64,000 nt of DNA from Tricharina praecox (Eukaryota): assembly GCF_024521635.1 (NCBI RefSeq), contig NW_026250406.1:620001-684000 (forward strand), written 5' to 3'. Below the pieces are notes generated by a model. It saw only the letters and a program-made list of their open reading frames with translations. It searched no databases and had not been told where the DNA came from. This document shows, piece by piece, positions 21,326-45,954 of the stretch (positions within the stretch are counted from its first letter, which is position 1; the number at the start of each line of letters is the position of its first letter). The translations under genes were made by a program, and so were the position numbers.

Positions 21326-21430
21326 GTGACGAGACCAGTGCAGGCAACAGCCCGAAAAGCCCATGGGCTGGGGAAACGAGAAGTCTGAAACAAGCTGTCA
21401 CGAACCCACACACCACAGACACTATGCAAT

Positions 21431-22179: not shown

Positions 22180-23199
22180 ATGGTTGGAGAGAAAATGAGT
22201 GTATGAATGTGAGTGAAAAGTAATGATGTTGGTAGAAAAGGCGGTGAATGGAAGACGTATAAAAGAGAAGAAATAAAAGGCGACGAATGTAAAGTGTGGG
22301 AAAGAGAAGGAATGGAGGTTGGTGAATCAAACGTGAGTGAAGGAGAAGAAATAGAGGGCGGTCAATGGTATCACGGCTCACGAATGCTGCCCCTTCCTGA
22401 GTACTCTCAGTGTATCACTTGGCTGCCGGAACCACCTAACCGGGTCGTCGTAGATTAGGGCGGACCCTGTTGATATCAGAGGTTGCTAGCAGCCCTCAGA
22501 GTTCATTGCTAGCCTCCAATCTTTGGGAGCATGGTTTGGGTAAGAGTGAAGTGTCACGGAGTGCGAAGGGGTGGCGGAAGCGGGTTTGGGACGGAGATCT
22601 GGCGGCACTGATGTAGGCTACGCTGCGGGACAGGAGCAGACTGGGGTAGCGCAGCAATATACTATGGAAGTGGGGTATTCAGAGCAGGAGTGATATGGGT
22701 CCGGCACAGGCGGCAGGCCTGCGCTCGTGGGTAGGTTGCGCCGAGGATCGCTTTACGATCATCGGTCTCTTCGCAGACGAACGATGCAGCCAGTTATTCT
22801 TGGGCTTCCTCGCCATCACCCATGTGGGTATTGGGCAGACGGATCCCGGAGGTCGTCGAGGAGGCGTGGCATGTGAGGTATCGGAGTCGGAACCTAGGGA
22901 ATGAGGAAAAGGCAGGCGGTAAGGATGTGAGAAGGGGCGGAGAGCGCTGAGCGGCTGAGGTTGAGGAGCCAAGGTCACTCACGCTGTTGCTCCCGATACC
23001 GTCTTTTATAGCATCTCCTAAGGAAGAGACAGGTGACGAGGGGGTGAGGAGTTGGCCCCAACTTCTGAACAAGAGATAGCAGTGGCAGTTGAATCCTCGT
23101 CTTCTGCTGCTGCCAGCAAATGTGTCACCACTACACCACGCTACATCATCTTGGTATTCACCCGAAACGCGCCTTACGTACCGGTGTGGAGTCTCCCAA

Positions 23200-24660
23200 G
23201 CGGGCTCCGATTCCCCCCCCCCCCCCCCCCCTCTCTCGCCTTTGTATATCTTCCTCCTCATTCTTCCTAAACCACCTCTCCTTCTCCCTTCTTCCTACTC
23301 TACTTTCAACTTGCTCTCCCTCCCTTCCCCTCTTCGTATGTACCCCACCATCAATCTTACGATACCCTCTTACCACTCAACCATCCTCCATCACCCCCCC
23401 CCACCCCCCACCCGCCCACCTCATGAAAACTTCCTTATCTCTTAACATCACGATCCTTCATCACCCCTCTACGGGTAGAATGGCCGGGAAACATCTGCTT
23501 TTGAATAGCTGCGTCTATACAACTACCACAACCCATCCACCCTCTACCCGGCCCACCCCTCCTTTGCTTCTACCCAATCCACCCTTACTTTGCTCCTACT
23601 CAACCCACCCCTCCTCCTTTGCTTCTGAAATTCATCCATCTTCCCCTCATCGTCCCTCATCATACCTCACGACAACCCCCTCTGGATCAAGATCCCGCAT
23701 ACATCATTCTATCTTACCATCACTATCAATCACATCTCTACAGCCCCGATCCCGTCCCTCTCGACTGTCCTGATTACACACATTTCCCACAACCCACTCT
23801 CACATAAATTATGGCCGCCACTACGACTACTACCCACACACAGCCCTCCGGCCTACTTCTGTCCGCGTGATCTCCAAGACGACTACACCGTGCTCCACGG
23901 GTCCGACCCTGGAAGTCATTACCGACTAGCACTCCTATTCATGTTAGCCTCCTCACGCTGCTCGTCAGCAATTTGGCGGTCGAGGTTTCGTTCTATCTGA
24001 ACATCTTCGGTCTCCTGGGCCTACTTGCCGTCTGTTTGGCGGTCGAGGATAATCGCCGCATGGTCCACTATGCGGCGGTTCCCGGGTAGGATATTGAAGC
24101 ACAAGAGAGTCACAATGGTGGCAAAGAGGAGAAGAGGAGAAGAGGAGAAGACGAGAAGAGGAGAAGAGGAGAAGAGGAGAAGATGGTTTAGGAAGACGAG
24201 GAGATGATTTGACGATTGTTGAATGAATAGGAAGACGAGAAGATAATTTGATGAGAAGATGTATGATGAAGGAATGTGAAGACGAGATGATGAGATGTTG
24301 AGATGATGAATGATGAATGATGAATGATTGGGAAGACGAGCAGGGTGATGGGGAAGAGAATGAGGCTGTTGCGGGTCGCTGTTTTGTTCTGTCAATTTTA
24401 TCGCAGATAACTGCATCCTCAATGATTTTGTATTGTTCCGAGCTCTTGGCCACGCAACAGATAGTGGTTTCGCAGCTAGCCAGTGATCTACATTGTCCAG
24501 TCCAGCCCAGACTTTCCCGAAATATTTGCATCGGTGGCCGCTCATCAGCCAACATCTCCACTGTGGATCATATCTCCTTCCTCCTGTTTGTATGCTCCCC
24601 AACCTTCGTCCATATGGATCATCTCTGCTGGCCTCTCCAATGTACAATGACCAGTGTTTG
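23200..24660 (+). repeat. Repeat family R1 copy
   Basis: Same block order as the 15190-17010 copy. Conserved terminal block TTTTATCGCAGATAACTGCATC at ~24396-24417. Confidence 0.8.
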
Positions 24661-24896
24661 AACTGTTGAATATATGAGGTAGATAAACATGACAATGGTA
24701 TTCGATACAGCAGCAACATCGCGAGCAGCGAGCTCTCTCTATATACAAGCTTCATAGACTAGGAAATCTCTGCATCGATCCCTTCAGGATGTCGGTGTTC
24801 CGTCACCCGGGACCCGTCACCAGTTACCCGTGCTCGGGTACCTCACCAGAGTACACTAGGGACATCACGACCTCCGGACGTCCCATATTCTGACAT

Positions 24897-26582
24897 GAAC
24901 AAGTGCTCTCGTGATAGCTTAGTAGTTCTGTTGCACCACCAGCATTGATCATCATCTCGCTAAATGATCCAATTCAGGTACGTACTACATAGTAGCTGTG
25001 AGGGCATGCCCCGTTGTGCAGTCGCTCTCGGGCAGCGTTTCACTCGTCGATCGATGAGTGCCAAGTAGCATTGCATGCCTCGACGGCAGCGACAATCATC
25101 ACTAACGACTGAACGCCGATTGAAATCCAGATTCCAAGCACCGCGTAGGTTATGTCAAACGAAGCCTCTCCTCCCCCCCTTTCTATATCTTCCTCCCCTT
25201 TTCCCCAACCCACCATCTTCATCCTCGCTCTCCTTCGCCCTTCTTCCTACTCTACCATCAACACCCCTCCATCCTCACGAAAACTCCCTTATCTCTTACC
25301 ATAACCTTCCTCCACCTCTCTACATTCACACACATCCCCACTCCCCCACACAACCCCGAATTTCCTCTCCCCAGCCATTTCCACCAAACCAATACCACCC
25401 CCGATCAATCGCATATCGATCCCCCACTGATCCGCGAGATGTGCAACTCCCGTATCTCTTACCATCACCACGCCTCCATCGTCTCGACTGACGACAATAT
25501 CCCCACTCCATCATCCTCATGACAACCTGCTTATCTCTTTCCAACACTATCCTCCACCTCTGTGCAACCCCGCTCCCAGAACGTATGGCCGCCACCGTCA
25601 TCCACGCCTGCACCCCGGTCATTGTTTTCCCAGCTCCGCCCGCGACACGACTACGCCCTACCACCGTCTACAATGCGGCGGCTCCGGGCCCTAACTATCC
25701 ATCACCAATCATCTGACGAACGACACGAAATCACTCTTCCACTACTCGCCGTCGTTTGGCGGTCTAGGACGCCGCCCCAACCAGCGATGATGCAGCGGTT
25801 TCTGGCTCTGGAAGGTCTCAAATTTCAATTGGGCGGTCGAGCCGACGTCCGCACTGCCGATAATGCGGCGGCCCCAGTTCGAGAGATGGAATTACCAATG
25901 ACTCACAATGGTGGCGAAGGAAGATGGAGGCGATGGAGGCGATGGGGGTGATGGGAGACTAAGAAGAAGAGGAGGAAGCATCCTCCTTCGAACGTCGAAG
26001 ACACCACCGATGGGGTTGCAATGAAATGAATGGAGGAGGGGAATCGCAGCCTAGAACTTGGAGGAGGAAGATGAGAAGGACGTGATGATGATTGAATGAA
26101 TGGGAAGACGAGAAGACGAGAAGATGAGATGAATGATGAATGAATGTGAAGGCGAGATGTTGGGATTTTGAGATGATGAATGCTGAATGATGGATGGATG
26201 AGAAGACGAGCAAGCAGATGAGTATGATGGAGGGGAGGAAGGAGAGCAGGACAGTGGGGACAAGGATGGCAGGAGGATGTTGCGGGTGCTGTTTATTTGT
26301 TTTTCAATTTTATCGCAGATAACTGCATCATCAATAATTTTGTATTCTCCCGAGCTCTTGACGACGCAACAAATAGTATCTTCGCAGCCAGCTAGTGATC
26401 TACATTGTCCAATCCAGATTTTCTCGACATATTTGCACCGGTGACCGCTCATCAGCCAACAGCTCCGCTGTGGACCATCTCTCCTTCCTCCTGTTTGTAT
26501 GGTTCCCAACCTTCGCCGACACGGCTCTTTGCTGGCCTCTCCAAAGCGACCAGTGTTTCAACAAGTACTCTCGTGATAGCTT
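24897..26582 (+). repeat. Repeat family R1 copy, head-to-tail with the previous one
   Basis: AACAAGT(G/A)CTCTCGTGATAGCTT occurs at 24898 and 26560. 26280-26560 matches 24370-24660. Confidence 0.85.
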
Positions 26583-26977
26583 CGTACAAAATCATCGAAA
26601 GCCGGGCTCCGAATCACACGTCATCTCCTCGTTCCCCGATGATCACATACGCCCCATTTCAGCGCGATTAGCCTCAACACCGGCTTTCCAACCTGACCTT
26701 TCCCTCGGGACACCGAAAACTGTTCACCATGATCGGTCAAACTTCCAACTGATGAGATTTCCGCGCTAAATCGTCTACATACTCGCAGAATGTTGCAGTG
26801 CAGCACCGTGGCGATGCCGACGAGAGCGCGGATGGGCAGTGGGGTTATATATGGTAGAAAGAGCAACATTTACCACTTGGCGGTGGGCGTGAACGATTAC
26901 CGGTGAGGAGTGGACACGGGCACACAGGATCACTCGGCTGGAAATTGGGCAGAGCAGAAGTTCGGTCGCGGTTGAAC

Positions 26978-27033
26978 TTTCGCCATAGTCTAGATGGGCT
27001 GCATGCCAAATAAACTGAAGATCTCTCTATCCC
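26978..27033 (+). repeat. R2 motif copy
   Basis: TTTCGCCATAGTCTAGATGGGCTGCATGCCAAATAAACTGAAGATCTCTCT. Confidence 0.75.
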
Positions 27034-27469
27034 TTTAGAATCAGGCTCAACTCAAAAACACCGACATCTGGCAAGTAACTCTGTGTGGCTCGCGACAGCC
27101 CACCCTCGGGGGAAGTATGGAAAAGTACTTTGCAGTGCGCGAAGCCTCGATTTCACGATTTATCAGGTACATCTGACACAGTATTTATCACCTTTATTTA
27201 TCCTTCTCTAGGCTGTGGGATGTGGGATGTCTTTGATGAGATCTTCTGGCTTTTTAATGGGGGCGTTCTGACTCTCGAGCTATGTGTCGGCCTCTCTGGG
27301 AACTCTAGATCTCGAACAGTCGACATCGATGTTGTACTTCTCAGATGATCTGAAAAATATGAACAGAGATGATTGTGCAGAGAAACCAATGTGAGCAATT
27401 AAATCATTATCATAATTAGGTCAAGCCACTCAATCCAATATGCATAGCCTCATACAGTAAGTGAACTTC

Positions 27470-28230
27470 CTCCTCCTCCTCGTGCTCACCATCCTGTTCC
27501 CCTTCCTCCCCTCCATCGTCCTCATCTGCTTGCTCCTCTTCCCATTCATTCATCATTCATCATTCATCATTCATCATACATCTTCTCATCTTCCCATTAT
27601 CTCGTCTTCCCATTCATTCAATCATCATCAAGTCCTTCTCGTCTTCTCGTCTTCTCGTCTTCTCATCTCCTGATCATCGCCCGAGGCTTCCTCCTCCAGG
27701 TGAGTCTCTAGAATCATCCTCGGAGGTTTCTTCGAAGGTGGAGGCTTCCTCCTCCAAGTTCTAGGCTGCGATTCCCCTCCTCCATTCATTTCATTGCAAC
27801 CCCATCGGTGGTGTCTTCGACGTTCGAAGGAGGATGCTTCCTCCTGTTCTTCCTATTCTTCCATCACCTCCATCCCCTGCATCTCTCCCATCTCCCTTCG
27901 CCACCATTGTGGGTCATGGGAAATTCCATCTCCTCAACAGGGGCCGTCGCATTGCCGGCAGTAAGGGAGTCGTTCTCGTCCGCCAAATTGGCCACGGGTA
28001 GGGCCAGGAGGCCGAAGATGTTGAGGTAGAACGATACCTCGACCGCCAAATTGGCGACGACGACGGTGAGGAGCGCCAACGTGACTAGGGGGAGCGAGTC
28101 GATAACGGCCACGGGGAGGAAGGCGAGCACCATGAGGAGGTTGCCGATGGATTTGTTTTTTTCTTTCTTTTAATTGTATCGCAGATGACTGCATCATCAG
28201 GACTTCGTAGCGTTTCGAGCTCGCTGTCAC
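27470..28230 (-). repeat. Rearranged R1 copy; 27490-27960 is a close inverted copy of ~25850-26260
   Basis: About 95 bp are identical in reverse complement (TCCTCCTCCAAGTTCTAGGCTGCGATTCCCC...GGAGGATGCTTCCTC). The terminal block at 28150-28230 is in the opposite orientation. Confidence 0.85.
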
Positions 28231-28416
28231 CCAATATATGTAGAAGGCTCGTAACTGTACCACCAACGGCAGAACCTTCACTTTCGCATTTCTTCGCACA
28301 TCCTTCCATCCACGCAACCTCATCCCTGTCATCCTACAGAATAAGAAACAACCCTGACCCCCACCGTTTCTCCGTCGCGTCACCCATATTCTAATGGATG
28401 GAGACAAAAAAGATAA

Positions 28417-28521
28417 CTCCTTCGGGTGGGCTTGAACCACCAACCTCTCGATGACCGAACAACCACAGATGCGGTAACTAAGGTAACAGTCGAACGCGCT
28501 AGCCAATTGCGCCACGAAGGA
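28417..28521 (-). tRNA. tRNA-Asn(GTT), 31-nt intron 28453-28483
   Basis: Complete cloverleaf: acceptor TCCTTCG/CGAAGGA, D arm GCGC, anticodon arm TTCGA-CTGTTAA-TCGAG, T loop TTCAAGC, discriminator G, downstream T run. Confidence 0.95.
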
Positions 28522-30045
28522 TGTTTCATGTCTGTTGTCGGCAAAGCCCACTACAGAGAAATCTTAGATAAGCCACTTCTGATTCACCACTTATCGTGTG
28601 GTCCCACATCCCCGCGACGGGAGAATTGTTATCGTTTTATCGCTGAAGACGGCAGCATCGAGGAGTGATCGTCGCTATAATTGTCTCCACACCCGAAGTA
28701 ACTATTCTCGAGAGGTGCGACGGCATTTCCTGGAGGGGGCGTCATTGTTGATGTTGTTTCGCCATCTCGAAATGCAGCCCGCGACGGGGACCTACAGCCC
28801 ACAAACAGCATTCGGTGACTAGGCCTTTGGCCTTATCGAATGGACTTCCCGACACCCGCCACTTCCGTTGCATTGCACCGGCGTTGCCATTCATCGAAGA
28901 ATAACCGCGCCGTGTGTGACGGAGATGAGCATGTCCTGTCGGTCCTTTGGATGGAGGAGACGCCGAAACCGCGAAGTCCCTGCAGAAGCGTTTGGAAATC
29001 CTCACGAAGCTCGATTGCAAAGTCCTTCCAAGCTCCAAACCCTAGCACGCAGCTTCTTCGTCTGCATTAAGAGCATTCAATGATAGACTCTCAGGAAGAG
29101 ACTCACCTACCCTGCTTCTCTAGTACACTGTGCTCAGAGCGCACCAGCCCCTTCTGTAACAAAATTCGTGCTTCCGAATGATCTTCCTCGTGGCCTGGGG
29201 CTATCCCTCAGGATGCCCGCACAGAAACCGTCCGCTTCCCTCCGTATTGTGAGATCCTGCGGGCAAGGAACCCACACACGAAGATAGGCCTCTGCTCTTC
29301 GTGCATCGATCTCTCCATGTAAATCTTGTCTCGTTTCATCCGAATAGTGGTTTTCTCCAGTAGTCCGGCTTGTGTTTATTCCAACCCTCGGCACCGTAGC
29401 CAATCAGCGTCTGCTCAAAATAAGAGTTGTTTGCTTACCGATCGGCCGGTGGAATCTCGCAAGAGGAGACCTTCTCTGAATTTTCCACAAGCTGAGAACG
29501 TATGGCATGGGAATTCCTTCCACGGTCGTGTCCCAATTGTAGGTGAAGATGATCTCCCTCAGATTCTCACTTGGAGGCCCCGATGCTCCCATCGAAGTGG
29601 CCATTCCCATAGTTGCAAAGCTGCTTATAATCGCAGGTATTGTTTCTCCACCGCCACGTCCCGTTTTATTGGTGACCAAAAAAGCGTTCTACGAAACTGA
29701 CGGAATTGCTGTAGCCTCGGAATACCTTTGTACTCTGTCTCACCGGACCGGGCAGTAAATGCTTCCAATCCGGCCGTCGCAACAAGATCGAAAAGGAGAA
29801 CATTGACCTCCACAAACCACCGACCGCCTATGAGGACTCAGGAGATAAAGCGCAGCCGTTCGAAAAATTTGCCTGATCTAGAATCTATTAGGACAAAATT
29901 CTCGGGTATTATGCGATACGCCCTCCAACTCACCCACACATTTGCTGGGTATTTGCGATGGCCAACACCAAATTTGCATCTCCCAGCGCCGGCAAGTTGG
30001 AACACTGCCCCCAGCAAAACGAAATGCTCCACGAGCAAAAGTAAA

Positions 30046-30141
30046 CTCCTTCGGGTGGGCTTGAACCACCAACCTCTCGATCGCCGAACCCCAGTAGTGG
30101 AATTAACAGTCGAACGCGCTAGCCAATTGCGCCACGAAGGA
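30046..30141 (-). tRNA. tRNA-Asn(GTT), 22-nt intron 30082-30103
   Basis: Exons identical to the 28417 copy. TTTACTTTT follows. Confidence 0.95.
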
Positions 30142-31253
30142 TGTTCGATGTTCCAGCTCGAAATTGGCTCATATGCCGTATTGTAAGACGGTTCTGCGAA
30201 GAAGGAGGCTGTACCGCGGCTGGTTGAATAAGATTTTGAAGTCAGATTGGGCTTCTTAACTAGGAGAGTTCATCGAGTGAGGCTAACCATGATCATGATG
30301 ATAAGCCACAATGGCACAGTGACTTCGCCACACGTCCAGCGCCGCCAACCTGCCGGAGTTCGTCCGCACTGAAGCGCTTCTTCGCAGTACAGGAAAGCGT
30401 GATGTCCAACAATCAACCGAAAGCGGCTTCGAAATAGCTCAGAGACATTTGAACTCGTCCTTGTAATGGGACCAGCGCGTAGCAGCGGAGATGTCGACGT
30501 GACTTGGCGAATGTTCCGAACGATATTACTCGTACTGCTACTGGGTGACGGAGAATATGACCTTTTGCTGACACCCCGGCTCCGCTGAAACGCGTTGATG
30601 ACTCGGAAGTAGAGCGTGCTTGTGGGAACTCGAGCACATCTTCTGTCCGCCCGGGAGCGTCGGAGTATGAATGCGTCAAGCGTGGAGTTCTCGCGGTTGA
30701 TTGACGAAGGGTAAGGCTGTTGGCACAGCCCAACACAGATGGTGGCCCCGATCTCCTTCCAAGGCCGGAGCTTATTGAGATGTAGCGCGCGTGCCGGTGT
30801 AGTAGTTTCCATATAACCGCGAGTGGCTGGCGGGAAAACGAGTGAACGAGTGGCCGCGGCCCGCGGGAGGGAGAATATTGAAGGTGTCTGATCTCTGCCT
30901 TTACGCCACAGTTGGCACGATCGCCGCAACACGTAACAATATATCAGAACTACTCCGTATCATATTAGCTCCACGTGTGAAAGTTTTCGGTTTGAAGGAA
31001 GTTTCGAAACATACTCAGATACTCCTCAAGAGCGTTACGTCGGATCCAATCCATCTTAGCGGGATGTCGCCTACTTGATGGACAAGTGCAGTTTGTGGAA
31101 CCCTCATTAAACTCCGACAATGCGTGTCGACTCGTACTCTACGGCGAACACAGGTACAGTTGTCGACGACATCGCGATCTGAGGAGATCCATCGATGTAG
31201 CAGTCGGTCCGTGTGGAATGCGAGTTGGTAAGGTGCCAGCGACCGGTGATCTC

Positions 31254-31314
31254 TTCGTCAAAGTCTAGATAGGCTGTATGCGAAATAAAACAGGAAGATC
31301 TCTCTCTCTCTCTC
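31254..31314 (+). repeat. R2 motif copy
   Basis: TTCGTCAAAGTCTAGATAGGCTGTATGCGAAATAAAACAGGAAGATCTCTCTCTCTCTCTC. Confidence 0.75.
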
Positions 31315-32352
31315 GACCGGCGATCTACTCCCACATCACTATCGGTATGGTTCTTAGTGGATGGGCTGTGGATCCACTGCACAATCTTTTTAGAAAGGAC
31401 ACAAGCAGAGGCCGCCCAGGACTTCGAACGCCGCGGCGATCGTTGAACACCATTCGACGCAGACGTTGATGTGGTGGGATACTAATATCTTCTTCACTAA
31501 TCTGTCAGCATCCGTTCCCGTTCGGTGATTCTGTATCCTCGGAGAAATTACAGACGTCCAGGTCAGTAATCTAATTTCCGTGCTGGCACCTATCACTTGA
31601 CGGTCCGTGCTAGAGATGATGTCCAGAAGGCGTGTGGGATGAAGATTGGTGATGTCATTAAAGTTCAACGATGATAGCGATTGGGGTGAAGTGATGGGAG
31701 AGAAGGATCCACAGTTGGAGAACGGCGGGGAGGGATTGAAAGGGGGATCGCTAGATGAAGCGAGCTGGAAGGGATAGCATGAGCCGTCGTAGATTGACAG
31801 GTGGGTGGTTGGATGTGTGAATCGTAATTCTGTGGTTACGGCGATGTGAGTGTTTGTATCGGTGGAAGTGGGGTAGTAATAGATGGTGGTGAGGGTTGAT
31901 ATGCGCAATACATACGACCTCCAACCCCGCCTCAGAAGCTAGGACGAACGTGGCAGAAAATCCATGCACGCGTCTGAATGCAGGCCCATCATGCCAAAAG
32001 CAGTGACTCCCTGGCTCCGGATTCTTCGCTCATTCGGGCCGGAACGGGCGGGAGTAGTGCCGTCAATTTCCGACTGGCCTACGGATGACGATGCCTGAGA
32101 GTAGGTGCGATTTCTGCCAACTCCAAACAAATTCGCAGTGCGCGCAAATCAACCTCTGTATACTACATTACTTGTGTACAATCTCCCCCCTTCATCAGCT
32201 GTGATGACCGTACTAATTCAATGACCACCATAGCTTACACCGTCAATATCGTACGCACCAATTTCTCCCCTCAGTAGTCATTGATGGTATGATACATCGT
32301 CGACCACATCCAAAAACCTAATAGTGTGCAACACAAGCCTCTCTCACAAGCG

Positions 32353-32439
32353 TCCTCCGTGGCGCAATTGGCTAGCGCGTTCGACTGTTAAACCCCAAAG
32401 GCAATCGAGAGGTTGGTGGTTCAAGCCCACCCGGAGGAG
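32353..32439 (+). tRNA. tRNA-Asn(GTT), 13-nt intron 32391-32403
   Basis: Same exons with acceptor variant TCCTCCG/CGGAGGA. TTTT downstream. Confidence 0.95.
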
Positions 32440-33203
32440 CAATCTTTTGCATTTCAGGCTGAGAAGGAATGTTTTTTTCGGCGGGATATTGGGGTGACAG
32501 AGAATTCGGACTGCGTGGCAGTGGATGTGTCGCGGGGGTCGCTACGTGAGACGGGACGGATCCGTTTGGTTAATGACGAGAAGGTTGAATACTCGAGGGA
32601 GAAAAACATACATCTATGGCAGTGGGAATAACTGCCACGAGTCTGAAACGGAGAAGAGGAGGGGTGGATCTCGTTTAGCTGCAGAAAAGACAGTGGGAAG
32701 CAAACCAAGGCAAGAATCCCGATGCCACGAGGTGAATTTTCAAGATGCTAACCCAACTAGGTACGCTGTTGGGGGTGGATGGCCGCTCGCTTTCCGCCGG
32801 ATGTCACACGGGGTCGCTGAAAGTTTGTAATTATCAGGTGAAAATCACACACCGGAGTTCTGGAAAGAGAGACCTTTAACGGCCGATGGATAATTTTCGA
32901 GGGAACTTCAACATATCGCCGCGTTCACTCAGCCTGCCGCCACAACTGGTAGTGAAGTAGGGTCACTGTTAATAGCAATCATGCAGAGTTCCGGGGTGAG
33001 GGAACATCTTCGAAGCGAGTCGGAAACGCGCGATTGTTTCGATACCTGGCCCACTATCAGGTAGTAGAAAGAGTCCACGTTACTGGTAATCACGTGGACG
33101 ACCACGCAGCAGCGAACAGCCGCGCCCTGCGTGTGGTTTGTAAAGTGGTGCCAAGAGAATTTTGGAGGTCAATTGATTACAGTATTATCCAAGACATCAA
33201 ACA

Positions 33204-33300
33204 TCCTCCGTGGCGCAATTGGCTAGCGCGTTCGACTGTTATTCCCACTTCTGTAGTTTCGGCGATCGAGAGGTTGGTGGTTCAAGCCCACCCGGAGGAG
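33204..33300 (+). tRNA. tRNA-Asn(GTT), 23-nt intron 33242-33264
   Basis: TCCTCCG variant. TTTCTTTTTT terminator immediately downstream. Confidence 0.95.
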
Positions 33301-34147
33301 TTTCTTTTTTCTCATGTCTGTTCTGCTGGAAGGCTGTGTTTTGAAGGTGCGAGTTAGAATATTCTAGATGGAGGAGCCAAGATGTGTCACGAGTGTAGAA
33401 TCTAACTTCAAAACCTCGATCGTGTATGTAAGCAGGCCACCTATTGCGGTTACGTGTGGCTACCAAGTAGGATTCAGCTGCTTTTCTTAATTCTACATAG
33501 GCTGTCGGCGCTGCAGAGTGTACGAAGTCTGCATGGGTTCCTTCGCCCTGCTTTTAGTCGTCCCGCTTGACATGTTCTAAGTTTCCTATCACTGCTGTAT
33601 CCTGCACTGTGGGGCTTGGGGCCGGGGGAGGGGCTCATCCATTTTGTTCCGCCGCCCGCGCGCAGCCTTGCTAGACTATGTACCTGGTATAACGAACTCT
33701 CGAAAGAAAGCATTCCTGCCCGCTTACGAGGGAGAGATAATCAATTTACTGTCGCATGCGGCCTGTCTAAACTTCAGCACGCCGTGATTTTGCTTAACAA
33801 ATGGTGGCTTCTGAAATCACGTGTTACGAGGGATCGAGTGATCATATGTGCCAATGGTTTGTGCTCCTGCTTCTACCCAGTTACACACTTTGGTAGTGGC
33901 TACAAATGTGTGATGAGGGGTTATTATTCCGTGTGGTGCCCTTTGCGACGTTTTGAAGCAGGAATTACCTACCAGGGGACTTCGCCATCCCTTGATCGTG
34001 CACTAATCGTTCGAACCAGCCTCGGTGGTCGTTGGTGTTGGTCGTTCGACAACACAAACGAAACCCCGAGAAAACTCACCCCCCGAAAAAGTGAAAACAG
34101 CACATCCGCCAGGCTAACCGCGCGACAGCATCACATTCGCCCACGAA

Positions 34148-34913
34148 ATGTCCGTTCCACGGACCCACCGCCCAGGCGCCGCGACTACAACTGATGCGTC
34201 GGCCGCTGCTGGTGTTTCAACAGGATCCCACGAGCTACCGACAGATGCTGTATCAAGCGAAGTTTCCGATACGCAACTGGAGTATATTGTTTATGTACGG
34301 CTGCCCTTTCCGCGGCGTGGCTTCGTCAACCCTCCCCAGGTATGACAAGCCCCACTCATATCCTCAGTCAGACCACAATACTTACCGACACTCGCATGAT
34401 CAGGTGTGCTGGAATGAACAGAAGGAGCGGCATCTCTGGCGTACGGTTATGCGAGAGGACCGCACACAGCCTATCGATTGTAAGTTTTCGAGATTGCCAA
34501 TGCGTCTTCGGAATGGTCTGCTAATCGCTGTCTAGGGAACAAGCTGTATGGCTTTGAATCTCCGCCGCTAGTATAGAAGATTATTAACAAACAAACATCA
34601 TAGTGCCGAAGACCTCCAGGTCACCCCGCTCTTTTGCATGCGTGTGATAAGTCTGCTCATCAACCAAGAGCAAGCCAAGCTGATGAAGGCCGCAAGGAGA
34701 CCGTCTACCTTTACCGCGCCTCGCGCTGGTTCCTCGACGCTGTCTCCAGAATCGGAATTGTTATCACCATCTTCTTCGATCATGTATGAGAAATCCCAAC
34801 CCGCTTCCACGGATGATCCCGCCTGGGAGTTGGTGTCATCGTTGGAAGAATGTCGTCGAGCGCCGCATAACGTTGAACCGGGGTCTGTGGTCGAATGGGA
34901 TCTGGATCCTTAG
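34148..34913 (+). CDS. ATG29: Atg29-like protein, N-terminal domain only (195 aa, 4 exons including a 10-nt micro-exon)
   Basis: Exons 34148-34339, 34404-34479, 34536-34545, 34604-34913 join in frame (588 nt). Sequence YIVYVRLPFPRRGFVNPPQVCWNEQKERHLW..IDWNKLAEDLQV matches the Atg29 N-terminal signature (RLPFPR..DPP..W...K...LW..IDW..LA). Confidence 0.75.
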
Positions 34914-35250
34914 TTACTTCGATCTAGGAGTTTTCATGCTCCGAAATACAGTTTTCGTACGTGTGTGAATGCCCTCAAATACCCTCAAATGGGTGCGACC
35001 TGATTGTTGTATCTTATCGGCGTGACAGACTGACGAGGCGATGCGATACCACACCGATGCTCCCTCAAGAATAACGGCGTGGTTCGATTCATTAGTCTTC
35101 GAATATCTCCAGTCTTTGTGTCTTAAGTGTTTTCTCTTCATGTCGAGCAACAGAACCACCAGTCGCCCAGAAACACCCACCTCCATCGCCGTTGATATCC
35201 CCCGCCCTAGGCGCAAAAAATGAACTTCCGCGTCGGAAACAAAAGAGAAA

Positions 35251-35348
35251 CTCCTCCGGGTGGGCTTGAACCACCAACCTCTCGATGTCGAATATTCACC
35301 AGAGTGAAGTTAACAGTCGAACGCGCTAGCCAATTGCGCCACGGAGGA
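35251..35348 (-). tRNA. tRNA-Asn(GTT), 24-nt intron 35287-35310
   Basis: TCCTCCG variant. TTTCTCTTTT downstream. Confidence 0.95.
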
Positions 35349-36361
35349 TGTTGCATGTTGGAGCTAGCAGAGTGACAGCCATTAAACGTCTAGCTCAGAA
35401 GCTTGATTATAACGTCTAGATCTGATTGGAAACCATGGGAGCAAGAAGAAATTGCCGCAGAAACATTCCGAATATGCACGAACAGTTGACACAAGGTGGT
35501 ATGCCGCGAATAGTTGGTGTGAATATTACACACCGCACGGCAAAGCCAGCCAGGTTATTGTGTCGGAGAGGATGGACACCGAGCCTAATATTTAAGCCGA
35601 GATGAGTTTCAATCTGCTTCCTAGCTTTCCGCTCATGTTGATTCTTCCTGACCCGTTCTATTCTCCTGACTGCTGGAATCAATGGAAAGTTTGTCGTTCA
35701 AGGTTCGGTGGTGCTCTGTTACTTCATTTTTAAGCAACGACATCCACGTTAAATAGTCCGAATTTCCAGGACCGGGCTTGCTGTATCGCGGGAACGTCTG
35801 CTATTATAGTTGTTCGAGCGGTCGGCAAATAATACTTTTGAACACTGATTCTACATACATACAGCCGATTGCCGTGGCCCTGGAGGTCGATGGTAATCGG
35901 ACGCGACAGTCCTGTCATTTGCGACGAAGGCGGAACTAAACCCTCGTTGCGGTGTTGCCTCCAGAGGACTCCACGCAGTCACTTTCATCATGAGGTGCTA
36001 CACTACTGATCTTTGTGGTGGTCACTCACGCTGAATCACTCAGGGGATCTTAATAGTCTGTTCAATGTGTGTACCATTATGAGTCACTCGCCCATAACAG
36101 TCCACTCCTGCGGAGATAGATTCCCAAAATACATGAACGGTGAAAACAAATTGTATAACTATATTAAAGCGTGCATCCTGACACATACTCTCTATGCACG
36201 AAATTAATACTTCCTTACGGATCGTACGGCCGCGCTTTCTTCAATGCAAAGCTGGGTTCCTCCAAGGTATGGTAGGGTTCGACCCTACCAGGGTCAACCC
36301 TAAGAAGGTTCATCCGTCTCGGGTTAGCCTTGAACACCTGTCTCGCGTATTGCTATACGTC

Positions 36362-36855
36362 CAGTGTTCTTCATCGTCCGGTCCGGACGGCCAAAATGCT
36401 GGACAGTTCGAGCCTGGGACGGACGGCCCACGGGTCGGTCTACGTCCGGCGGTGGAGGATGACCGTCCAAGTCACGTGAAATGATTTGCCTGATTGATGA
36501 TTTCTTAGCAGCGATATCCTATGCACCACCTCAACAGTTCATTCCTCACGGCTCCACTAGCTGTGACAAGTAATAGTATTCTGACTCGGACGCCTAATGT
36601 GCGGCGGCGACCGGGCCTTATCACAGCGCTGAGCGCTCTAGGCACCATATCATACTCGGCAACCCAAGGTACACGCCTGAAATCAAGTTTTTACCCAACA
36701 ATTGACGGACTGCCATCGACAGCTGTCTGCGCGTTGTTCGTCTCGTCTGCCTGCTGAAAGAAACGTGGCCCTCACGTGCTAGGCTCGGTCAGGCGCGAGG
36801 CACGCCGTCCGTCCTCTTATGAGGCCCAGGACGGGCCGGACAATGGAGAACACTG
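36362..36855. mobile_element. Non-autonomous hAT-like element
   Basis: TIRs CAGTGTTCTTCATCGTCC / GGACAATGGAGAACACTG and subterminal GGAC/GTCC repeats. Flanks TATACGTC and TATAATACGTC form an imperfect TSD. Confidence 0.75.
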
Positions 36856-36892
36856 TATAATACGTCGCGCATAACAAAACAAGAAAAAAGAA

Positions 36893-36980
36893 TACACGAG
36901 GCGGGATTTGAACCCACGTCTCCGTCGGCCTTCGCCTGTCGGTTGGGAGGACGGCATGCTAACTACTGCACTACTCGTGT
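36893..36980 (-). tRNA. tRNA-Gly(CCC), atypical, 16-nt intron 36928-36943
   Basis: ACACGAG TA GTGC AGTAGTTA GCAT G CCGTC CT CCC A [intron] C GACGG AGAC GTGGG TTCAAAT CCCGC CTCGTGT A, followed by TTCTTTTTT. All four stems pair. Confidence 0.8.
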
Positions 36981-40561: not shown

Positions 40562-41454
40562 TAAATAATACCCATGCGTCGCATCGCTGTCTTTGAAGAG
40601 CCAGCTTAACTAGAAGGACGCAAATCGCTGGTATCCCACCTTCGTTTCCCATCCGATTATCCCAATCGATAGGCTTTCCAGCACCTTAAACTTCTTTTGT
40701 TCGAGGCTCTTTGGGATTTGTACCATCAGTCCAGCACTACGACGCAGGTGGTGCGTCGATTTGGGAATGTCTTCATTACTCCTGTTCAATATCAGCGTAG
40801 CATAGTCCCAGCTCCAGGCTTCGATGAATTGGTTATGGTTCAGCCGCCCCTGATCTCTAATGTGTGCTTGCCCTAAGTCACCGTCCACACAGCGATGTTG
40901 ATGTACCCCACCACTGGCAATTCGAGGCGTGAAATAAGGACACCTCTCGCACCGAATAGCTTTAGAACGCCTTAGGTGAAGACGCAGGAAGCGGCGCGAC
41001 GAAAGAGTCTTATATGTGGTATCGATGAAGAGAGAGGGGGGGGGCGAGGTCAAGAAAGAGATCAAGATCCATGGTCCGGTATTTGATGAGAGCAAATACC
41101 TGTCAATGAGTTACCAGGATAGCGGTCTGCTAGACAAAAATATCACAAACAATGCCACGTGCTGGCATAGTACCAGTGACTAAGTACATAAGTAGTCGAT
41201 CGTGTAAAGAAAGTTGTGAAGGAGCCAAAGCCTCTGTCGTAAAAGTTGATGTTATTCGCACAGAAAATACTCAGCGATCGAGGCTCTCTAAATCGGGTGT
41301 CGTGCATGGAAATCGCCCATCCAGACTTTGGGCTGCCACTCCCCTTCCTTCACAACCACACACAAATCCACTGTCCACCCAACGGCAACCCCACGAACCA
41401 CCCCGAAGCACGAAACGAACATTCGCGATCCGCCAGTAGCGAAATCCAGAAATC

Positions 41455-42028
41455 ATGCCCATCATGCTATTCGCCACTGCCAGTATGCCTCCGCTTCAGA
41501 GACAGCTGACTAGAGACTGATGTTCCTTTCCCAATAGTGTCTGCGCCTGGTCGGAAGCCCCAATCGCTGCACCTGTTTCGTTCGCAAGAGCGTTCATTGT
41601 ATGTCTCACCAGTTCTTGCTCATGCATACTGCCATTCGAAAGCTCACATGCGCCACCAGTGCACGGCAAGGCCATCCTTGGCAGAAATTACCATTACCTC
41701 GACAAGGACTTCTACAAGCCCGATCGTGGACAGAATCGCGGCCACAGTGGCGGTGACCGTGGTAACAATGATCCCAAGCAAGGTACAGTCTCTAAAACCT
41801 TCCGCGCTTCCTACGCTGGTTTAGCTGACAGATATTTCAATAGGCTCCGACAGTATGGATCTCCTGACGTTTTATGCGCTGCTGTGTTCGAACTGACGTC
41901 GAATAGTCTCACCTGTCACGTTGATTGCATTCCCACTGTGGGCAGTTGGCTATGGTTTCTACTATGAATACGTCCGCGAGAAGACTGCAAAGGCTGCTGA
42001 GGAAAAAGCTAAGGAATCTGGTACCTGA
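41455..42028 (+). CDS. Micro-exon family gene 1 (5 exons; exon 2 appears to carry a +1 frameshift)
   Basis: Exons 41455-41482, 41538-41598 (61 nt), 41660-41782, 41844-41852 (9 nt), 41907-42028. C-terminus ISPVTLIAFPLWAVGYGFYYEYVREKTAKAAEEKAKESGT*. Confidence 0.6.
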
Positions 42029-43186
42029 TCGAAGAAGGCGTAGATTTTCAATACTATAGGGGGTTCACGAGCATGATGAAGCATTCTCGAATACATGGTA
42101 AATCATGTGTGAAACCCGCTTCGTCTACCCGGTACCTTCAATGCCATCCGAGAAAAAACGTGCGTGATGCCAAAGCCATGTGGAATACTAAATGGTGAAT
42201 CATGTGTGAACTCGGCTTCGTCTACCGAAAGCACAGCCGATAGCCCGTTGCTAGACTGCACGCTCCCAAGCATGGTGATTTTTAGGCGTCAAGCTCTCAG
42301 GTATGGAGAAAGGGCGTGCCCTAGTCTGAGCGCTGGTGCACTATACGCCGTATTGAGCATGGAGTACCTACTAAAATAATGCCGATGCAATAGACAACGC
42401 CTTTGACGCAAACATGGACGAAGAAGTCTGGGTATGAGCGGATTCTAGGTGACCGATAGACAGATATGATGAGAATCTCCCTCTGACCTGGTGGATCCTC
42501 TAATATCCTACTGCTCCGGCCCACAAACCACCCCCAGGGTTGCCTCTACTTCAAGATAGTAGCTAGGTTAGGTCGATTATCTGAGCGGAGGTACCGTGAT
42601 ACTACGATTCCGAGGGTTTGTCGTTTTCTCGGTGTGGTGTGGGTAGATCTAAAACGTCAATTTGGAAGCCGATACGATAAGATGAAAAGACGGGGAACTT
42701 TTCACTTCAGTGTACCGTATTATCTCGGATAACTGTTGGCTTTTTTTGAGTGGTTAGCGCCGCTACACGCAGGCTTGGCGCGCTTCTTACACGCCGCATT
42801 TCGGGTGCTTGGCGCTTAGTCAGTATCAAAATCACTAGCGCAAAGTTTCCGTGATGTTTCTCCACATGCACAGCACCCACTTCAGACCTCGTCTCTCCAG
42901 CAGACTGCCACAACATCATCATCTTCAGTGTTGCCGATGTTGGGAAACAGCTCTACAATCATATACCGCTTACCTACTCCTTCCAGTCGCTTGTTTCTTC
43001 TCGCTAATACTGGTTCACCTGGAACAGGCATCCTCCCCATGCGCGCTGAGAGAGTGGCCGATGAGCCTGCTGAGGATGCGTTCACTGAACCTTCGCTGGG
43101 CACGCCCACCGAACCTGTCAAGAGTACACCACTCAACCTGCCGAGAGCGCCCCGGCCGAGAGCGCGCCTTCCGAGCCTCGTAAGAA

Positions 43187-43270
43187 CGCGCCCACTGTGA
43201 CAATAACGCGCCCACTGAGCCTGCCATGAGCGCGCTCACTGAGCCTGCCATTAGCGCGCCCACTAAGTCT
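43187..43270. repeat. 24-bp minisatellite
   Basis: CGCGCCCACTGAGCCTGCCATGAG-like units, 3-4 copies. Confidence 0.75.
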
Positions 43271-43920
43271 GCTACTGATGACGCGTCAACCGAGTATGTC
43301 GAGAGCTCGCTCACTGTGCCTTGTAGACATCTTTGACGAGCGATCAGTCTGATATTGTTGTCTGTCGTTGTCGGGAGCATCTTGAGCCGTAGATGTAAGA
43401 ACAAGAGCTGCGAATTCTGATATGACTGTGTCGGCAGGTGCTACTTTCGTAGGAAAAATGACCTCGTTGTTCTCCATTATTGTCTCCGTGATTTCTATCG
43501 ACTTGATCTTTGTAGGGTGTACTCTACTTGTACTGTAAAGCTCTACATCTGCCATTCCCACGATGCTTCCGCAGTTTCAGCCGCATTAACCTAATCGGCT
43601 GATGTTCTGTTGCTGCGCCGGCGCTAACCATATTCACGCTAGTGTGCACTTCTCCGCGTTAGTTCCATTTCAAAAAGCGAACAGTTATCTGAGATAATAC
43701 GGTAGCTAGTGATACCTTCAATTCGTGGCTCAAAAGACCGGTTCCGGACACATTAGCAATGTCGCGATAGATTGAAGCAAGCGTTGAAACTGCGAGTTGT
43801 GTGCCCCACCTCTTTCCACCAAGACCCTTCCACCACACCATCGACATCAAACAACTTACATCATCAGGAACGACATCCCCAGAAACATACTCGACTCCCC
43901 AACCTCCAGATACAACAATA

Positions 43921-44516
43921 ATGCCGATGTTCTCCAAGCTTTTTGGCATGGGTAATTACTTCCGTACAGTCAGAATTCTCAACGGGATTAAAAACTGATG
44001 TGGTCTCCGTTAGGTGCCTCTTGCGCGGTAGCTGAGGTGTTCCCCAAGCTCAAGCAAGTCTCTATTGCGTCGCGCAATGGAATCAAGTGTGAGTCCCAGC
44101 TGCGCCGGCTCATACTATATGGATCACCATTCGGAAGCTTATGCAGTGTATGGACGTGCTAGTTCCCTACTACAAGCTCAGTAGCCGCGGCAGCGTTCGC
44201 TATGTTGCCTCGGGACCGGACAAGAACCTCAAAAAGAAACACGATGACGACCACAAGGGTAAGAGCCTTATCCATAGCATCCCGCACTCCTTATTGAGAT
44301 AGGGTCACTGATGCAGCTATTGACAGGACGCTTGGGTACCACCACACTTCCGCTTTTTCCGCGATACTTATGAACTGACGTCTAGCTGCCCTCCTCGTCG
44401 GCTTCGGTATTCCCGGAGCCTGCATGGCAATCGGCCTCTACTCGTGCATCCTCCTAGACAAGAAGCATGCCAACGACAACAAAAAGGGCAAGTCGGAGGC
44501 GGAAATCGCTGCCTAG
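43921..44516 (+). CDS. Micro-exon family gene 2 (113 aa, single TM)
   Basis: Exons 43921-43951, 44014-44088, 44163-44258, 44327-44335, 44386-44516, all introns phase 1. MPMFSKLFGMGASCAVAEVFPKLKQVSIASRNGIKFPYYKLSSRGSVRYVASGPDKNLKKKHDDDHKGRLAALLVGFGIPGACMAIGLYSCILLDKKHANDNKKGKSEAEIAA*. Confidence 0.7.
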
Positions 44517-45409
44517 AATCGTCACATTTCGGTCAATTTTAGTCACCGTTAAAGCGAAATCTGGAAAACGAGTATCTGGGTCAAAGTTCTAAGTTCTTTC
44601 CGTGTTGTTTTACTTTTTCTCGTAGGCCCTCTCCCATGTGATTTGCAATGCGAATTTTGAATTCGGAAGATGCCATTAGACGTGTGCCAGTCGCTGCCAC
44701 AGACGTCACGGTTCTACGCACCGCCATAGTAGTCGGTGTCAGTCAAATCTTAAAGTAGGTGGGCGGAGGAACCCCTCCATAATATGCTGAACCCCCACAG
44801 GTAGGAACGATAGCTGGTTGAGTAGAATCTAGCGGCGAAAGAGAAGAAGGACGGGAAGCAACACGCAAAGGATATGTCAATCACCATGCATCCGAAACAA
44901 GCGTTCCGCCGTCGAAGCCTCAAGGCGTAACCCTGCTGCTATACTTCAGAGTACCTGAAGCTGCCCCGGAATGAAAGATACTTGCTGGATAAGATCTGGT
45001 TGAATGGGTGATATTGACATTTAGAGGGCGAGAAAATGGGAGAAAAGGCTCCTAACAGCGATGCTGATTATATGGGGTGATCTTAGTTCATCCTACCGGA
45101 GGGGGAGATCATGATGCTGGATTGTGACCTCACAAGGAGAGCCTCAAAAGGAGAAAAATAAAATATCTAAAAATTACGCGGTCTTTCCAGTGATCTCATG
45201 ATAGAGCTCATCAGGTGCGCTACAGCTATTGAAAGGACGCTGGATGTTTCCTGTTTTGGTCTTTTGAGCAGCGGGTCAACGACACACATTTCTACCAAAC
45301 CCAACCTTTCGTCCCCCAAGCTTCCTCCTCTATCCCCCCAACCTCTTCCTCCCGACAAGAAACGTCTTCAACAACACCACAAAATACACCGACGACAATC
45401 ACTCTCAAG

Positions 45410-45954
45410 ATGCCCATCATGACTCCAGGTAATTTATGATATCTCCGACTGCTAGTAGCAGCTTCATTGAACTTGTTCTCGCTGCGCAGGTTCTCGCATT
45501 TACGGCAAGAGCGTCTTCAAGTTGGCCTCCCATGGCTACCGCCTCGGTGAGTTCCCGGTCTTCTAATTCATCGCCTGCAATTTCATCCGAGGACTAATGA
45601 CCACCAGCGGCCAAGAAGCCTCACCCAAGTCGTCTCACTTCATACAAGGGAGGAGACGGCTACAAGAACTCCCATGACAAGATCGACGGTACGTTTATCC
45701 TTTTGTTACTTGAATCATAGGCATTCATGATCACTGACGGTGTTTCCTGACAGCTCGCTTGTGTCAGTTATCCCCTCGACGTTGAGTTGAAGCGCATCTA
45801 CTGACCGTGACTAGTCGCGTGGCTGAATATTGTCGTCATTCCGGCTGGATGCCTGGGCTTGGGTCTCTACTGGGGATACCGCCATGAACCCATGGATAAA
45901 AAGGGTCGCGAGGAACTCGATGTTCTGCTACACACTTCCTTCTGTACCAAGTAG
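45410..45954 (+). CDS. Micro-exon family gene 3 (101 aa, single TM)
   Basis: Exons 45410-45428, 45490-45546, 45608-45688, 45754-45762, 45815-45954, all introns phase 1. MPIMTPGSRIYGKSVFKLASHGYRLAAKKPHPSRLTSYKGGDGYKNSHDKIDARLFAWLNIVVIPAGCLGLGLYWGYRHEPMDKKGREELDVLLHTSFCTK*. Confidence 0.75.

Follow-up and report, generated by a model that had tools for sequence, protein, structure and literature searches.

The small genes studied here, from the fire-site cup fungus Tricharina praecox (Pezizomycetes), raise the question of whether three short reading frames without DNA similarity are real and related genes, and what kind of protein they encode. The initial annotation of the 64-kb stretch of DNA analysed (hereafter the window) had placed three co-oriented genes at 41455, 43921 and 45410, and the coordinates of the three ATGs as well as their location on the plus strand were confirmed. 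Gene 2 (43921..44516, +) has five exons of 31, 75, 96, 9 and 131 nt (43921-43951, 44014-44088, 44163-44258, 44327-44335 and 44386-44516), encoding a polypeptide of 113 amino acids when the 9-nt exon is included. Gene 3 (45410..45954, +) has five exons of 19, 57, 81, 9 and 140 nt (45410-45428, 45490-45546, 45608-45688, 45754-45762 and 45815-45954) and encodes 101 amino acids. The internal exons of 75/96/9 and 57/81/9 nt proposed initially were exactly reproduced, as were the four phase 1 introns of each gene, all of which have GT..AG borders and a length of 50–74 nt; retention of any one of them results in a frame break or a stop. Translations of exon 5 matched T. praecox proteins annotated as hypothetical at NCBI with 100% identity. 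The gene 3 model is identical to BZA05DRAFT_442077, 9-nt exon included, and the NCBI model of gene 2, BZA05DRAFT_416072, comprises 110 amino acids without that exon; the accessions of the two proteins are consecutive. The gene models of genes 2 and 3 are taken as shown and, because both were already annotated, the family is not 'hidden' as had been suggested.

Evidence for relatedness came from the protein level. No DNA similarity between the three loci was detected by blastn (best E 0.14). The predicted proteins of genes 2 and 3 were similar with a local z of 7.6 (0/500 shuffles) and those of genes 1 and 3 with a z of 7.1–11.8 (0/500 or 0/1000 shuffles, depending on the comparison); the pair of genes 1 and 2 taken alone was not significant (z 0.2, 194/500 shuffles). 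By this protein similarity beyond shuffles and the shared intron positions and phases, the three genes are judged to be diverged paralogues forming a tandem family. GC3 was 0.73 in gene 2 against an intron GC of 0.47, and 0.67 in gene 3 against 0.46. All three genes are regarded as real coding sequence because the protein similarity (z 7–12) persists without DNA similarity, and because genes 2 and 3 combine a GC3 excess with introns whose retention breaks the frame. The proposal of a clustered, fast-diverging family of small one-helix proteins with basic N-termini and a charged tail was supported, at a size of ~93–113 amino acids and with the helix in the C-terminal part. Our favoured reading, which we hold to be probable, is that genes 1–3 are tandem paralogues, either old or fast-evolving, of a family so far known only from T. 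praecox and encoding one-helix membrane proteins of this size, which would be made and seated in the membrane as single-pass proteins.

Gene 1 (41455..42028, +) is the weakest member. A total of 29 open GT-AG models were enumerated for it. The path with the best signals, using an exon of 61 nt at 41538-41598 followed by the acceptor at 41659/41660, breaks the frame, and open five-exon models require an intron of 44 or 86 nt with a weaker acceptor in addition to a phase 2 intron. A four-exon model of 28/123/9/122 nt (41455-41482, 41660-41782, 41844-41852 and 41907-42028, +) with phase 1 introns throughout, encoding 93 amino acids, gave the best alignment with gene 3 among the models compared (local z 11.8). 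Its N-terminal part alone aligned with gene 3 at z 5.3 (0/1000 shuffles), compared with z 0.9–1.9 for the other three models. The four-exon structure is thus the one favoured by homology, and the five-exon layout thought to be common to all three genes holds for genes 2 and 3 but is doubtful for gene 1. The 61-nt segment or 'pseudo-exon' (41538..41598, +), which has a good acceptor signal on one side and a good donor signal on the other, may be a cassette or poison exon, a former exon 2 that has lost its frame, plain intron, or the product of an assembly error of 1 nt. Gene 1 also has a GC3 of 0.56–0.59 against an intron GC of 0.50, with weak codon-position bias, and a weakly hydrophobic helix (Kyte-Doolittle mean 1.33), and it may be in decay. 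It was absent from the matches of a profile search against 1.84 billion protein representatives, which points weakly to a gene lacking an annotation; at NCBI it may be either unannotated or mis-modelled.

The state of gene 1 bears on a different view of the whole locus, according to which these would be young or decaying ORFs of little or no function, perhaps transcribed but evolving near-neutrally in a gene-poor, repeat-rich compartment, with gene 1 already a pseudogene. Such a view would accommodate the frame-breaking segment, weak hydrophobicity and weak GC3 bias of gene 1, the finding of relatives nowhere, and the surroundings, as only one of 93 ORFs scanned in the window reached the Pfam cut-off and dispersed repeats are frequent across it. 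However, drift that erased DNA similarity would hardly have spared the reading frames, the phases of the introns, the 9-nt exon or a protein similarity of z 7–12. Selection linked to translation is also indicated by the marked excess of GC3 in genes 2 and 3, and we consider neutral decay unlikely.

A feature common to the three genes is an exon of only 9 nt, located at 41844..41852 in gene 1, 44327..44335 in gene 2 and 45754..45762 in gene 3 (all +). In gene 1 it codes for the residues directly N-terminal to the membrane helix, and in genes 2 and 3 its contribution is an Arg-Leu pair that borders the helix on the N-terminal side. Exon 3 and the last exon are separated by a stretch of 124, 127 and 126 nt in the three genes, about twice the length of the other introns (50–74 nt), and in each gene both halves of the stretch carry their own CTRAY branch motif and AG. 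In the three-gene alignment of this stretch, invariant columns concentrate on branch and splice signals, and the 9-nt exon and its two flanking introns, the last two of each gene, keep the same register. A parse into branch motif plus AG, 9 nt and GT arose in 1.3–1.4% of shuffles (20,000 per stretch), corresponding to a joint value of 2.5e-6 that overstates independence because the three genes share ancestry. The 9-nt exon predicted initially is therefore well supported by splice and branch signals, by the shuffle test and by the public gene 3 protein. It is most likely constitutive, in which case the public model of gene 2 simply misses it, although that model leaves some room for skipping or non-use.

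The double length of the stretch and its two complete sets of splice signals also recall the stwintrons of Pezizomycotina. In the [D1,2] type, the donor of an outer intron is split by an inner intron (PMC12403724). Unlike that arrangement, the two T. praecox introns lie side by side with 9 in-frame coding bases between them, and the public gene 3 protein includes the encoded residues; the stwintron reading was rejected on these grounds. Fungal micro-exons in ordinary genes offer a closer parallel. About 9% of gene models in Coprinopsis cinerea are stated to have an internal exon of ≤15 nt, and gene predictors to miss such exons (PMC12230235), and a regulated micro-exon has been reported in Trichoderma Xlr2 (PMC11121469). 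The T. praecox exon resembles these in being a short internal exon of a kind that gene predictors overlook; it differs in being kept in three diverged paralogues, at the edge of a membrane helix, and in being droppable in frame.

The symmetric internal exons invite comparison with the micro-exon genes (MEGs) of Schistosoma, whose coding sequence consists largely of many symmetric micro-exons of ~6–36 nt and which encode secreted products with signal peptides. Clustered, fast-diverging small proteins and symmetric exons in multiples of three that can be skipped without loss of frame are common to both systems. Unlike the MEGs, the T. praecox proteins have a membrane helix and no signal peptide, and each gene has one 9-nt exon, with other internal exons of 57–123 nt, so that the term 'micro-exon genes' in the initial annotation is an overstatement. 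A MEG-like role, with phase 1-1 exons skipped combinatorially to diversify proteins for recognition or conflict, would draw on the symmetry of genes 2 and 3, where every internal exon is a multiple of three between phase 1 introns, so that any skip keeps the frame, and on the public gene 2 model, which remains open without its 9-nt exon. Against this, there is a single micro-exon per gene, gene prediction may simply have overlooked it in the gene 2 model, and loss of exon 2 or 3 would delete most of the N-terminal region instead of varying it. Exon skipping is also rare relative to intron retention in filamentous fungi, and combinatorial diversification is in our view very unlikely. A narrower role, in which the 9-nt exon would be a splicing-controlled switch at the membrane-helix edge and the 61-nt segment of gene 1 a second switch acting as a poison cassette exon, is given little credence here. 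If it were true, inclusion would put Arg-Leu before the hydrophobic segment in genes 2 and 3 and move the start of the helix by three residues. Arrest of the helix in the membrane or its orientation could then change, for example between stop-transfer in the inner membrane and onward passage, giving two differently sorted micro-proteins from one gene. This would be a rare case of a filamentous ascomycete regulating the use of a micro-exon, and one common to a whole paralogue family.

Returning to a constitutive exon in a family of one-helix proteins, the predicted polypeptides can be divided into four parts. A Met-Pro start would be followed by a basic N-terminal region of 45–65 residues, rich in Ser, Gly and Lys and predicted to be disordered. 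The three residues from the conserved 9-nt exon would come next, exactly where the membrane segment borders on the N-terminal region. This segment is a single putative membrane-spanning helix that contains an invariant Pro and ends in Gly-[Leu/Phe]-Tyr, and a helical charged tail of 21–28 residues is expected to complete the protein. The helix core, noted previously as P-x6-G-(L/F)-Y, is conserved as P-x6-G-F-Y in gene 1 (41933..41962, +) and as P-x6-G-L-Y in gene 2 (44412..44441, +) and gene 3 (45841..45870, +). In a six-frame translation of the window the pattern occurs at four places, three of which are the last exons of these genes; the fourth, at 38209(-), is non-hydrophobic and a chance match. 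Invariant positions across the three proteins are the P, the G, the Y and a single K in the tail. Mean Kyte-Doolittle hydropathy of the helix is 2.08 in gene 2 and 2.01 in gene 3, and the tails contain 5 K+R and 4–5 D+E. An AlphaFold2 prediction (mean pLDDT 54) placed residues 1-44 at pLDDT < 50 and gave one helix at 46-100, its membrane part at pLDDT 68–78; there was no confident N-terminal helix.

Searches for relatives were carried out with several methods. No Pfam family was matched at E ≤ 10 by the two full public proteins and two pieces of gene 1, nor at E ≤ 0.1 by six exon pieces. A three-sequence profile searched against 1,835,955,588 representatives gave six matches at E ≤ 0.001, consisting of two of the queries and four bacterial repeat proteins of 438–3041 amino acids. 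Word-index protein searches returned only self-matches (1/7, 1/5 and 1/2 candidates). A sequence search of the PDB yielded 11 entries at E ≤ 10, none of them meaningful, with a designed coiled coil as the best; no small subunit of complexes I–IV was among them, and the nearest mitochondrial entry was Rcf2 (E 1.4). A first metagenome scan produced 597 pattern matches, none confirmed. Of the 207 matches in a second scan one was confirmed by tblastn and then rejected as a chance occurrence of the 12-residue pattern in a 745-aa multi-helix ORF of bacterial type. Three soil metatranscriptome runs yielded no contig for 41300-46100 (0 contigs in 3/3 runs), a result without bearing on expression. The earlier failure to recognise a family was therefore borne out by Pfam, PDB sequence, profile and metagenome searches and, judged on annotated proteomes and metagenomes, the family has so far been found only in T. 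praecox.

The initial annotation had further assigned the proteins to mitochondria, on the basis of N-termini rich in basic and poor in acidic residues. The composition was confirmed, the K+R/D+E counts over the first 40 residues being 5-6/3, 6/1 and 8/0 for genes 1, 2 and 3, respectively. In addition, among the feature neighbours in ESM-Atlas, those bearing a name were for both annotated proteins small single-helix mitochondrial subunits, namely ESSS/NDUFB11, SDH7, COX7B and NDUFC1. Scores were 0.80–0.85 and 0.85–0.89 for the two proteins, and ESM-Atlas rates scores < 0.9 as leads only; 112–152 of 256 features were shared, where true family members typically share 170. The two results are not independent because the proteins are paralogues. 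Resting as it does on composition and these weak language-model neighbours, the mitochondrial inner membrane is a tentative first choice of compartment for the proteins of genes 1–3. There, the basic N-terminal region would act in the manner of a presequence, and the helix would anchor the protein by stop-transfer. The same genes and proteins may, with a comparable and likewise tentative degree of belief, be non-mitochondrial. In that case they would span a membrane once in the ER, the secretory pathway, the plasma membrane or the vacuole, with a cytosolic N-terminus and the helix as a late signal-anchor. The basic N-terminal residues are mainly Lys with few Arg, gene 2 has hardly any charge in its first 20 residues (1 K+R, 1 D+E), and AlphaFold2 predicts a disordered N-terminal region rather than an amphipathic helix. 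The maximum N-terminal helical hydrophobic moment is 1.0–1.3, values for which there is no calibrated threshold. Charge across the helix is nearly balanced and therefore does not dictate topology. Set against a secretory location, the N-terminus is not signal-peptide-like, and the named neighbours of both proteins, weak leads as they are, are mitochondrial and not secretory. The composition claimed initially thus stands, and the localisation derived from it is weakened by the preference for Lys over Arg, the near-uncharged start of gene 2 and ESM-Atlas scores of 0.80–0.90.

Given the same neighbours, the genes could descend, with extreme divergence, from a small subunit of the respiratory chain that is already known, ESSS/NDUFB11 of complex I being an example. 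ESSS clusters scored 0.81 with the gene 2 protein and 0.89 with that of gene 3, and the ESSS family or clan made up 7 of the 10 best named matches of gene 3. ESSS/NDUFB11 (PF10183), SDH7 (PF27931), COX7B (PF05392) and NDUFC1 (PF15088) share the architecture of ~100 amino acids with a basic, acid-poor N-terminus, one helix and a charged tail, a likeness that amounts to resemblance only. In contrast to it, no sequence match to these subunits was obtained by Pfam, even at E ≤ 10, by the profile search at E ≤ 0.001 or by the PDB search, and the ESM-Atlas scores lie below the level of evidence. Conserved housekeeping subunits would also not be expected in three fast-diverging tandem copies, whereas the T. 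praecox genes are species-restricted and tandemly triplicated. Descent from a respiratory subunit appears highly improbable.

The paralogue reading places the locus among fungal orphan gene clusters, which consist of taxonomically restricted genes. Like the genes of such clusters, those of T. praecox have no known homologues in other species, encode short proteins, occur in tandem and lie where repeats are frequent and conserved genes few, and there is no difference in kind; the locus is a species-restricted gene family, real but fairly ordinary, and alone opens no long-standing question. If confirmed, the findings would correct the T. praecox annotation, where the 9-nt exon is missing from gene 2 and gene 1 is perhaps unannotated or mis-modelled. 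They would also provide a clean case in which selection has kept a micro-exon in paralogues that have otherwise drifted past recognition at the DNA level, which could be used to train fungal gene finders, and a small, tractable orphan family for studying the origin and sorting of single-helix membrane or mitochondrial micro-proteins.

Three candidate relics of further copies were considered and left as unproven. Two 19-nt matches, one at 45223-45241 to the border of the gene 2 micro-exon and one at 42369-42387 to the start of gene 2, did not reach significance within the window (E 0.14, or no match at all), and a peptide encoded at 42073-42123 that resembles exon 2 of gene 3 had an E of 1.6. 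Finally, each ATG is preceded by a C/A-rich, G-poor tract on the plus strand, at 41305..41454 for gene 1 (C 0.40, G 0.15), 43771..43920 for gene 2 (C 0.35, G 0.13) and 45260..45409 for gene 3 (C 0.40, G 0.10), compared with a mean of 0.26 for both C and G in the window. The tract upstream of gene 1 is likely to represent a 5' leader or core promoter region.

Three genes begin with ATG codons at 41455, 43921 and 45410 of the window on the + strand, as the initial annotation had proposed, and the sequence evidence indicates that they form a real tandem, species-restricted family whose predicted products are small single-pass membrane proteins and whose 9-nt exon is conserved. For gene 2 (43921..44516) and gene 3 (45410..45954), the exon sizes and four phase-1 introns originally claimed proved exact to the base, resulting in GT..AG models with exons of 31/75/96/9/131 nt (gene 2, + strand, 113 aa) and 19/57/81/9/140 nt (gene 3, + strand, 101 aa). 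The predicted introns of both genes are 50–74 nt in size, and retention of any of them leads to a frame shift or stop. GC3 of the exons was 0.73 (gene 2) and 0.67 (gene 3), compared with an intron GC of 0.47 and 0.46, with the smallest GC3 excess of the three in gene 1 (41455..42028). Upstream of each ATG lies a C/A-rich, G-poor tract of 150 nt (G 0.10–0.15, against 0.26 in the window). The last-exon translations of genes 2 and 3 were 100% identical to two NCBI hypothetical proteins of T. praecox (Pezizomycetes, Pyronemataceae), BZA05DRAFT_416072 (110 aa) for gene 2 and BZA05DRAFT_442077 (101 aa) for gene 3; the accessions of these proteins are consecutive, so there is no annotated gene between the two. 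The family is thus not 'hidden', since both genes were already annotated and the public model of one includes the micro-exon; the locus represents a tidy case of annotation and evolution, not a new kind of system.

Local alignment of the predicted proteins demonstrated similarity between those of genes 2 and 3 (score 61, z 7.6, 0/500 shuffles) and of genes 1 and 3 (z 7.1, 0/500 shuffles), whereas the pair of genes 1 and 2 was not significant by itself (z 0.2, 194/500 shuffles); gene 1 therefore belongs to the family via gene 3. A blastn comparison within the window identified no DNA similarity among the three loci: all seven off-diagonal matches had E values of at least 0.14, and only one linked the neighbourhoods of two of the loci. 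These results agree with the earlier description of a fast-diverging clustered family. The resemblance of the proteins, the open frames, the phases of the introns and the micro-exon thus persist where all DNA similarity has been lost, which argues for selection acting on the protein products. Some spacer sequences also resemble the genes. The spacer 42073–42226 contains a 38-nt direct repeat (at 42092 and 42189; 87%) with a translation like exon 2 of gene 3 (tblastn E 1.6), and 19-nt matches to the start of gene 2 and to the border of its micro-exon are found at 42369–42387 and 45223–45241. None of these resemblances is statistically significant; they may be remnants of copies that have decayed.

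Translating the window in six frames gave four occurrences of the motif P-x6-G-[LF]-Y, previously noted in the transmembrane helix: one in the final exon of each gene, and a fourth that was dismissed as a non-hydrophobic chance match. The P, G and Y of the motif, together with one tail Lys, are invariant across the three proteins. Each protein has one hydrophobic helix followed by a charged tail of 21–28 residues (5 K+R and 4–5 D+E), and the N-termini are basic, with K+R/D+E in the first 40 residues of 8/0 (gene 3), 6/1 (gene 2) and 5–6/3 (gene 1), both as first described. AlphaFold2, run on the three-row alignment, predicted a single long helix from residue 46 to 100 with pLDDT 68–78 across the membrane part; mean pLDDT was 54, and residues 1–44 were mostly below 50. 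All three proteins start with Met-Pro-(Ile/Met) (at 41455, 43921 and 45410), the remaining N-terminal region having diverged. Removal of the initiator Met would expose an N-terminal Pro, the feature that marks proteins as Pro/N-degron substrates for the GID ubiquitin ligase; the Met-Pro start may be no more than a start-context constraint.

The five-exon layout said to be shared by all three genes holds for genes 2 and 3 and is doubtful for gene 1. The clear parts of gene 1 are exon 1 (41455–41482), the 9-nt exon (41844–41852) and the last exon (41907–42028); the frame is lost when the best-signalled internal exon (41538–41598, 61 nt) is followed by the best acceptor, which precedes 41660. There were 29 open GT-AG combinations, and four of these models were compared with genes 2 and 3 by local protein alignment. 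The best fit to gene 3 was obtained with a four-exon model in which 41482 is joined to 41660 (28/123/9/122 nt, 93 aa, all introns in phase 1), with a whole-protein local z of 11.8 compared with 7.0–7.5 for the others; for the N-terminal part the values were z 5.3 (0/1000 shuffles) against 0.9–1.9 (67–175/1000). In this model the 123-nt exon runs colinear with gene 3 exons 2 and 3 together, and gene 1 would therefore be without one intron. The model puts the 61-nt segment within a 177-nt intron. Good acceptor and donor signals flank this segment, which could represent a poison cassette, an earlier exon that has been frameshifted, the product of a 1-nt assembly error, or nothing. The helix of gene 1 is the weakest (mean hydropathy 1.33 vs 2.0–2.1 in genes 2 and 3).

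Between exon 3 and the last exon, each of the three genes has a stretch of 124–127 nt, roughly double the size of the other introns. It parses as intron, 9 nt, intron, with a separate CTRAY branch motif and AG in each half; the 9-nt exon of gene 2 is at 44327–44335 and that of gene 3 at 45754–45762. When the three stretches were aligned, the invariant columns fell on both branch motifs and on the inner AG and GT, with little else kept. In 20,000 composition-preserving shuffles per stretch, with the outer signals fixed and branch motif plus AG, 9 nt and GT sought, such a parse arose by chance in 1.43%, 1.29% and 1.35%; when the exon could be any multiple of three between 3 and 30 nt, the rate was 6.7–7.0%. 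Multiplying the three values for 9 nt gives 2.5e-6, a figure that treats the genes as more independent than they are, given their common ancestry. The pattern points to constraint on the 9-nt exon, which would have been retained through the strong divergence of the three genes. The public gene 3 protein is identical, letter for letter, to the model with this exon, and the public gene 2 protein corresponds to the model without it. Residues encoded by the 9-nt exon sit directly before the helix; in genes 2 and 3 they include Arg-Leu. The exon, which is conserved, is probably constitutive. The locus was also sought in three soil metatranscriptomes, which yielded no trace of it. RNA reads of T. 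praecox exist: 2–15 million read pairs per isolate guided the annotation of a second assembly (PMC12773724), and the JGI assembly presumably has a transcriptome as well. Fungal micro-exons are in themselves no rarity; for Coprinopsis cinerea, one account gives an internal exon of at most 15 nt in about 9% of gene models (PMC12230235). Every internal exon of genes 2 and 3 is symmetric, so the diversification by exon skipping suggested initially could in principle occur; nothing seen in this analysis supports it.

Searches for relatives bore out the initial failure to recognise a family. Pfam yielded no match to exon pieces, nor to the full proteins even at E<=10, word-index protein searches returned nothing beyond the query proteins themselves, and there was no meaningful match among PDB sequences and no real relative in two metagenome scans. 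A three-row profile searched against 1.84 billion representatives recovered, apart from its two queries, four bacterial proteins with repeats of cadherin-like, CARDB and peptidoglycan-binding types; these four were regarded as spurious. Across Pfam, PDB sequences, protein representatives and metagenomes, the predicted family is therefore known from T. praecox only, and assignment of the three proteins to a known family is not possible. For both annotated proteins, the named ESM-Atlas feature neighbours were small mitochondrial single-helix subunits (ESSS/NDUFB11, SDH7, COX7B and NDUFC1), with scores of 0.80–0.85 (gene 2) and 0.85–0.89 (gene 3) that the tool rates as leads only; shared-feature counts of 112–152 fell short of what genuine members typically show, and the queries are paralogues of each other. 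These neighbours and the acid-poor basic N-terminus tentatively favour the mitochondrial inner membrane as the single most likely compartment. A membrane location outside mitochondria is about equally likely, given that the N-terminal charge is Lys-rich, the first 20 residues of gene 2 are nearly uncharged and AlphaFold2 gave no confident N-terminal helix.

Among stop-to-stop ORFs of at least 95 aa in the window, 1 of the 93 scanned (18 + 75) reached the Pfam cut-off, a GFA domain at 5641–6606 on the − strand; a sub-threshold match to ATG29_N was located at 34095–34535. So few domains in 64 kb is unusual for a fungus and suggests a compartment rich in orphan genes or made up of decayed repeats. 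Dispersed repeats are frequent in the window. The region 11900–28600 contains many direct and inverted copies (100–275 nt, 71–94% identity), including the pair 11995–12269 and 25173–25447 (94%) and the arms 25843–26070 and 27745–27972 (89%), as well as CT-rich microsatellite-like tracts; these probably derive from old transposons. Between genes 1 and 2, a 992-bp element (42713–43704) with 33-nt terminal inverted repeats (94% complementary) includes a degenerate 24-nt tandem repeat in seven copies (43049–43321). A Pfam scan of its ORFs gave no match, and it looks like a non-autonomous, MITE-like DNA transposon. Long runs of about 16–19 G at 11384–11423 and 20066–20105 could represent homopolymer tracts or positions prone to assembly problems. 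ARAGORN identified a tRNA gene cluster at 28400–36980, comprising Asn(gtt) (30046–30141, −), a copy read as Asn(att) (33204–33300, +), Val(aac) (35251–35348, −) and Gly(tcc) (36893–36980, −), and a tRNA-like repeat copy at 28408–28538 received no ARAGORN call; the lengths of 88–98 nt suggest introns in these tRNA genes.
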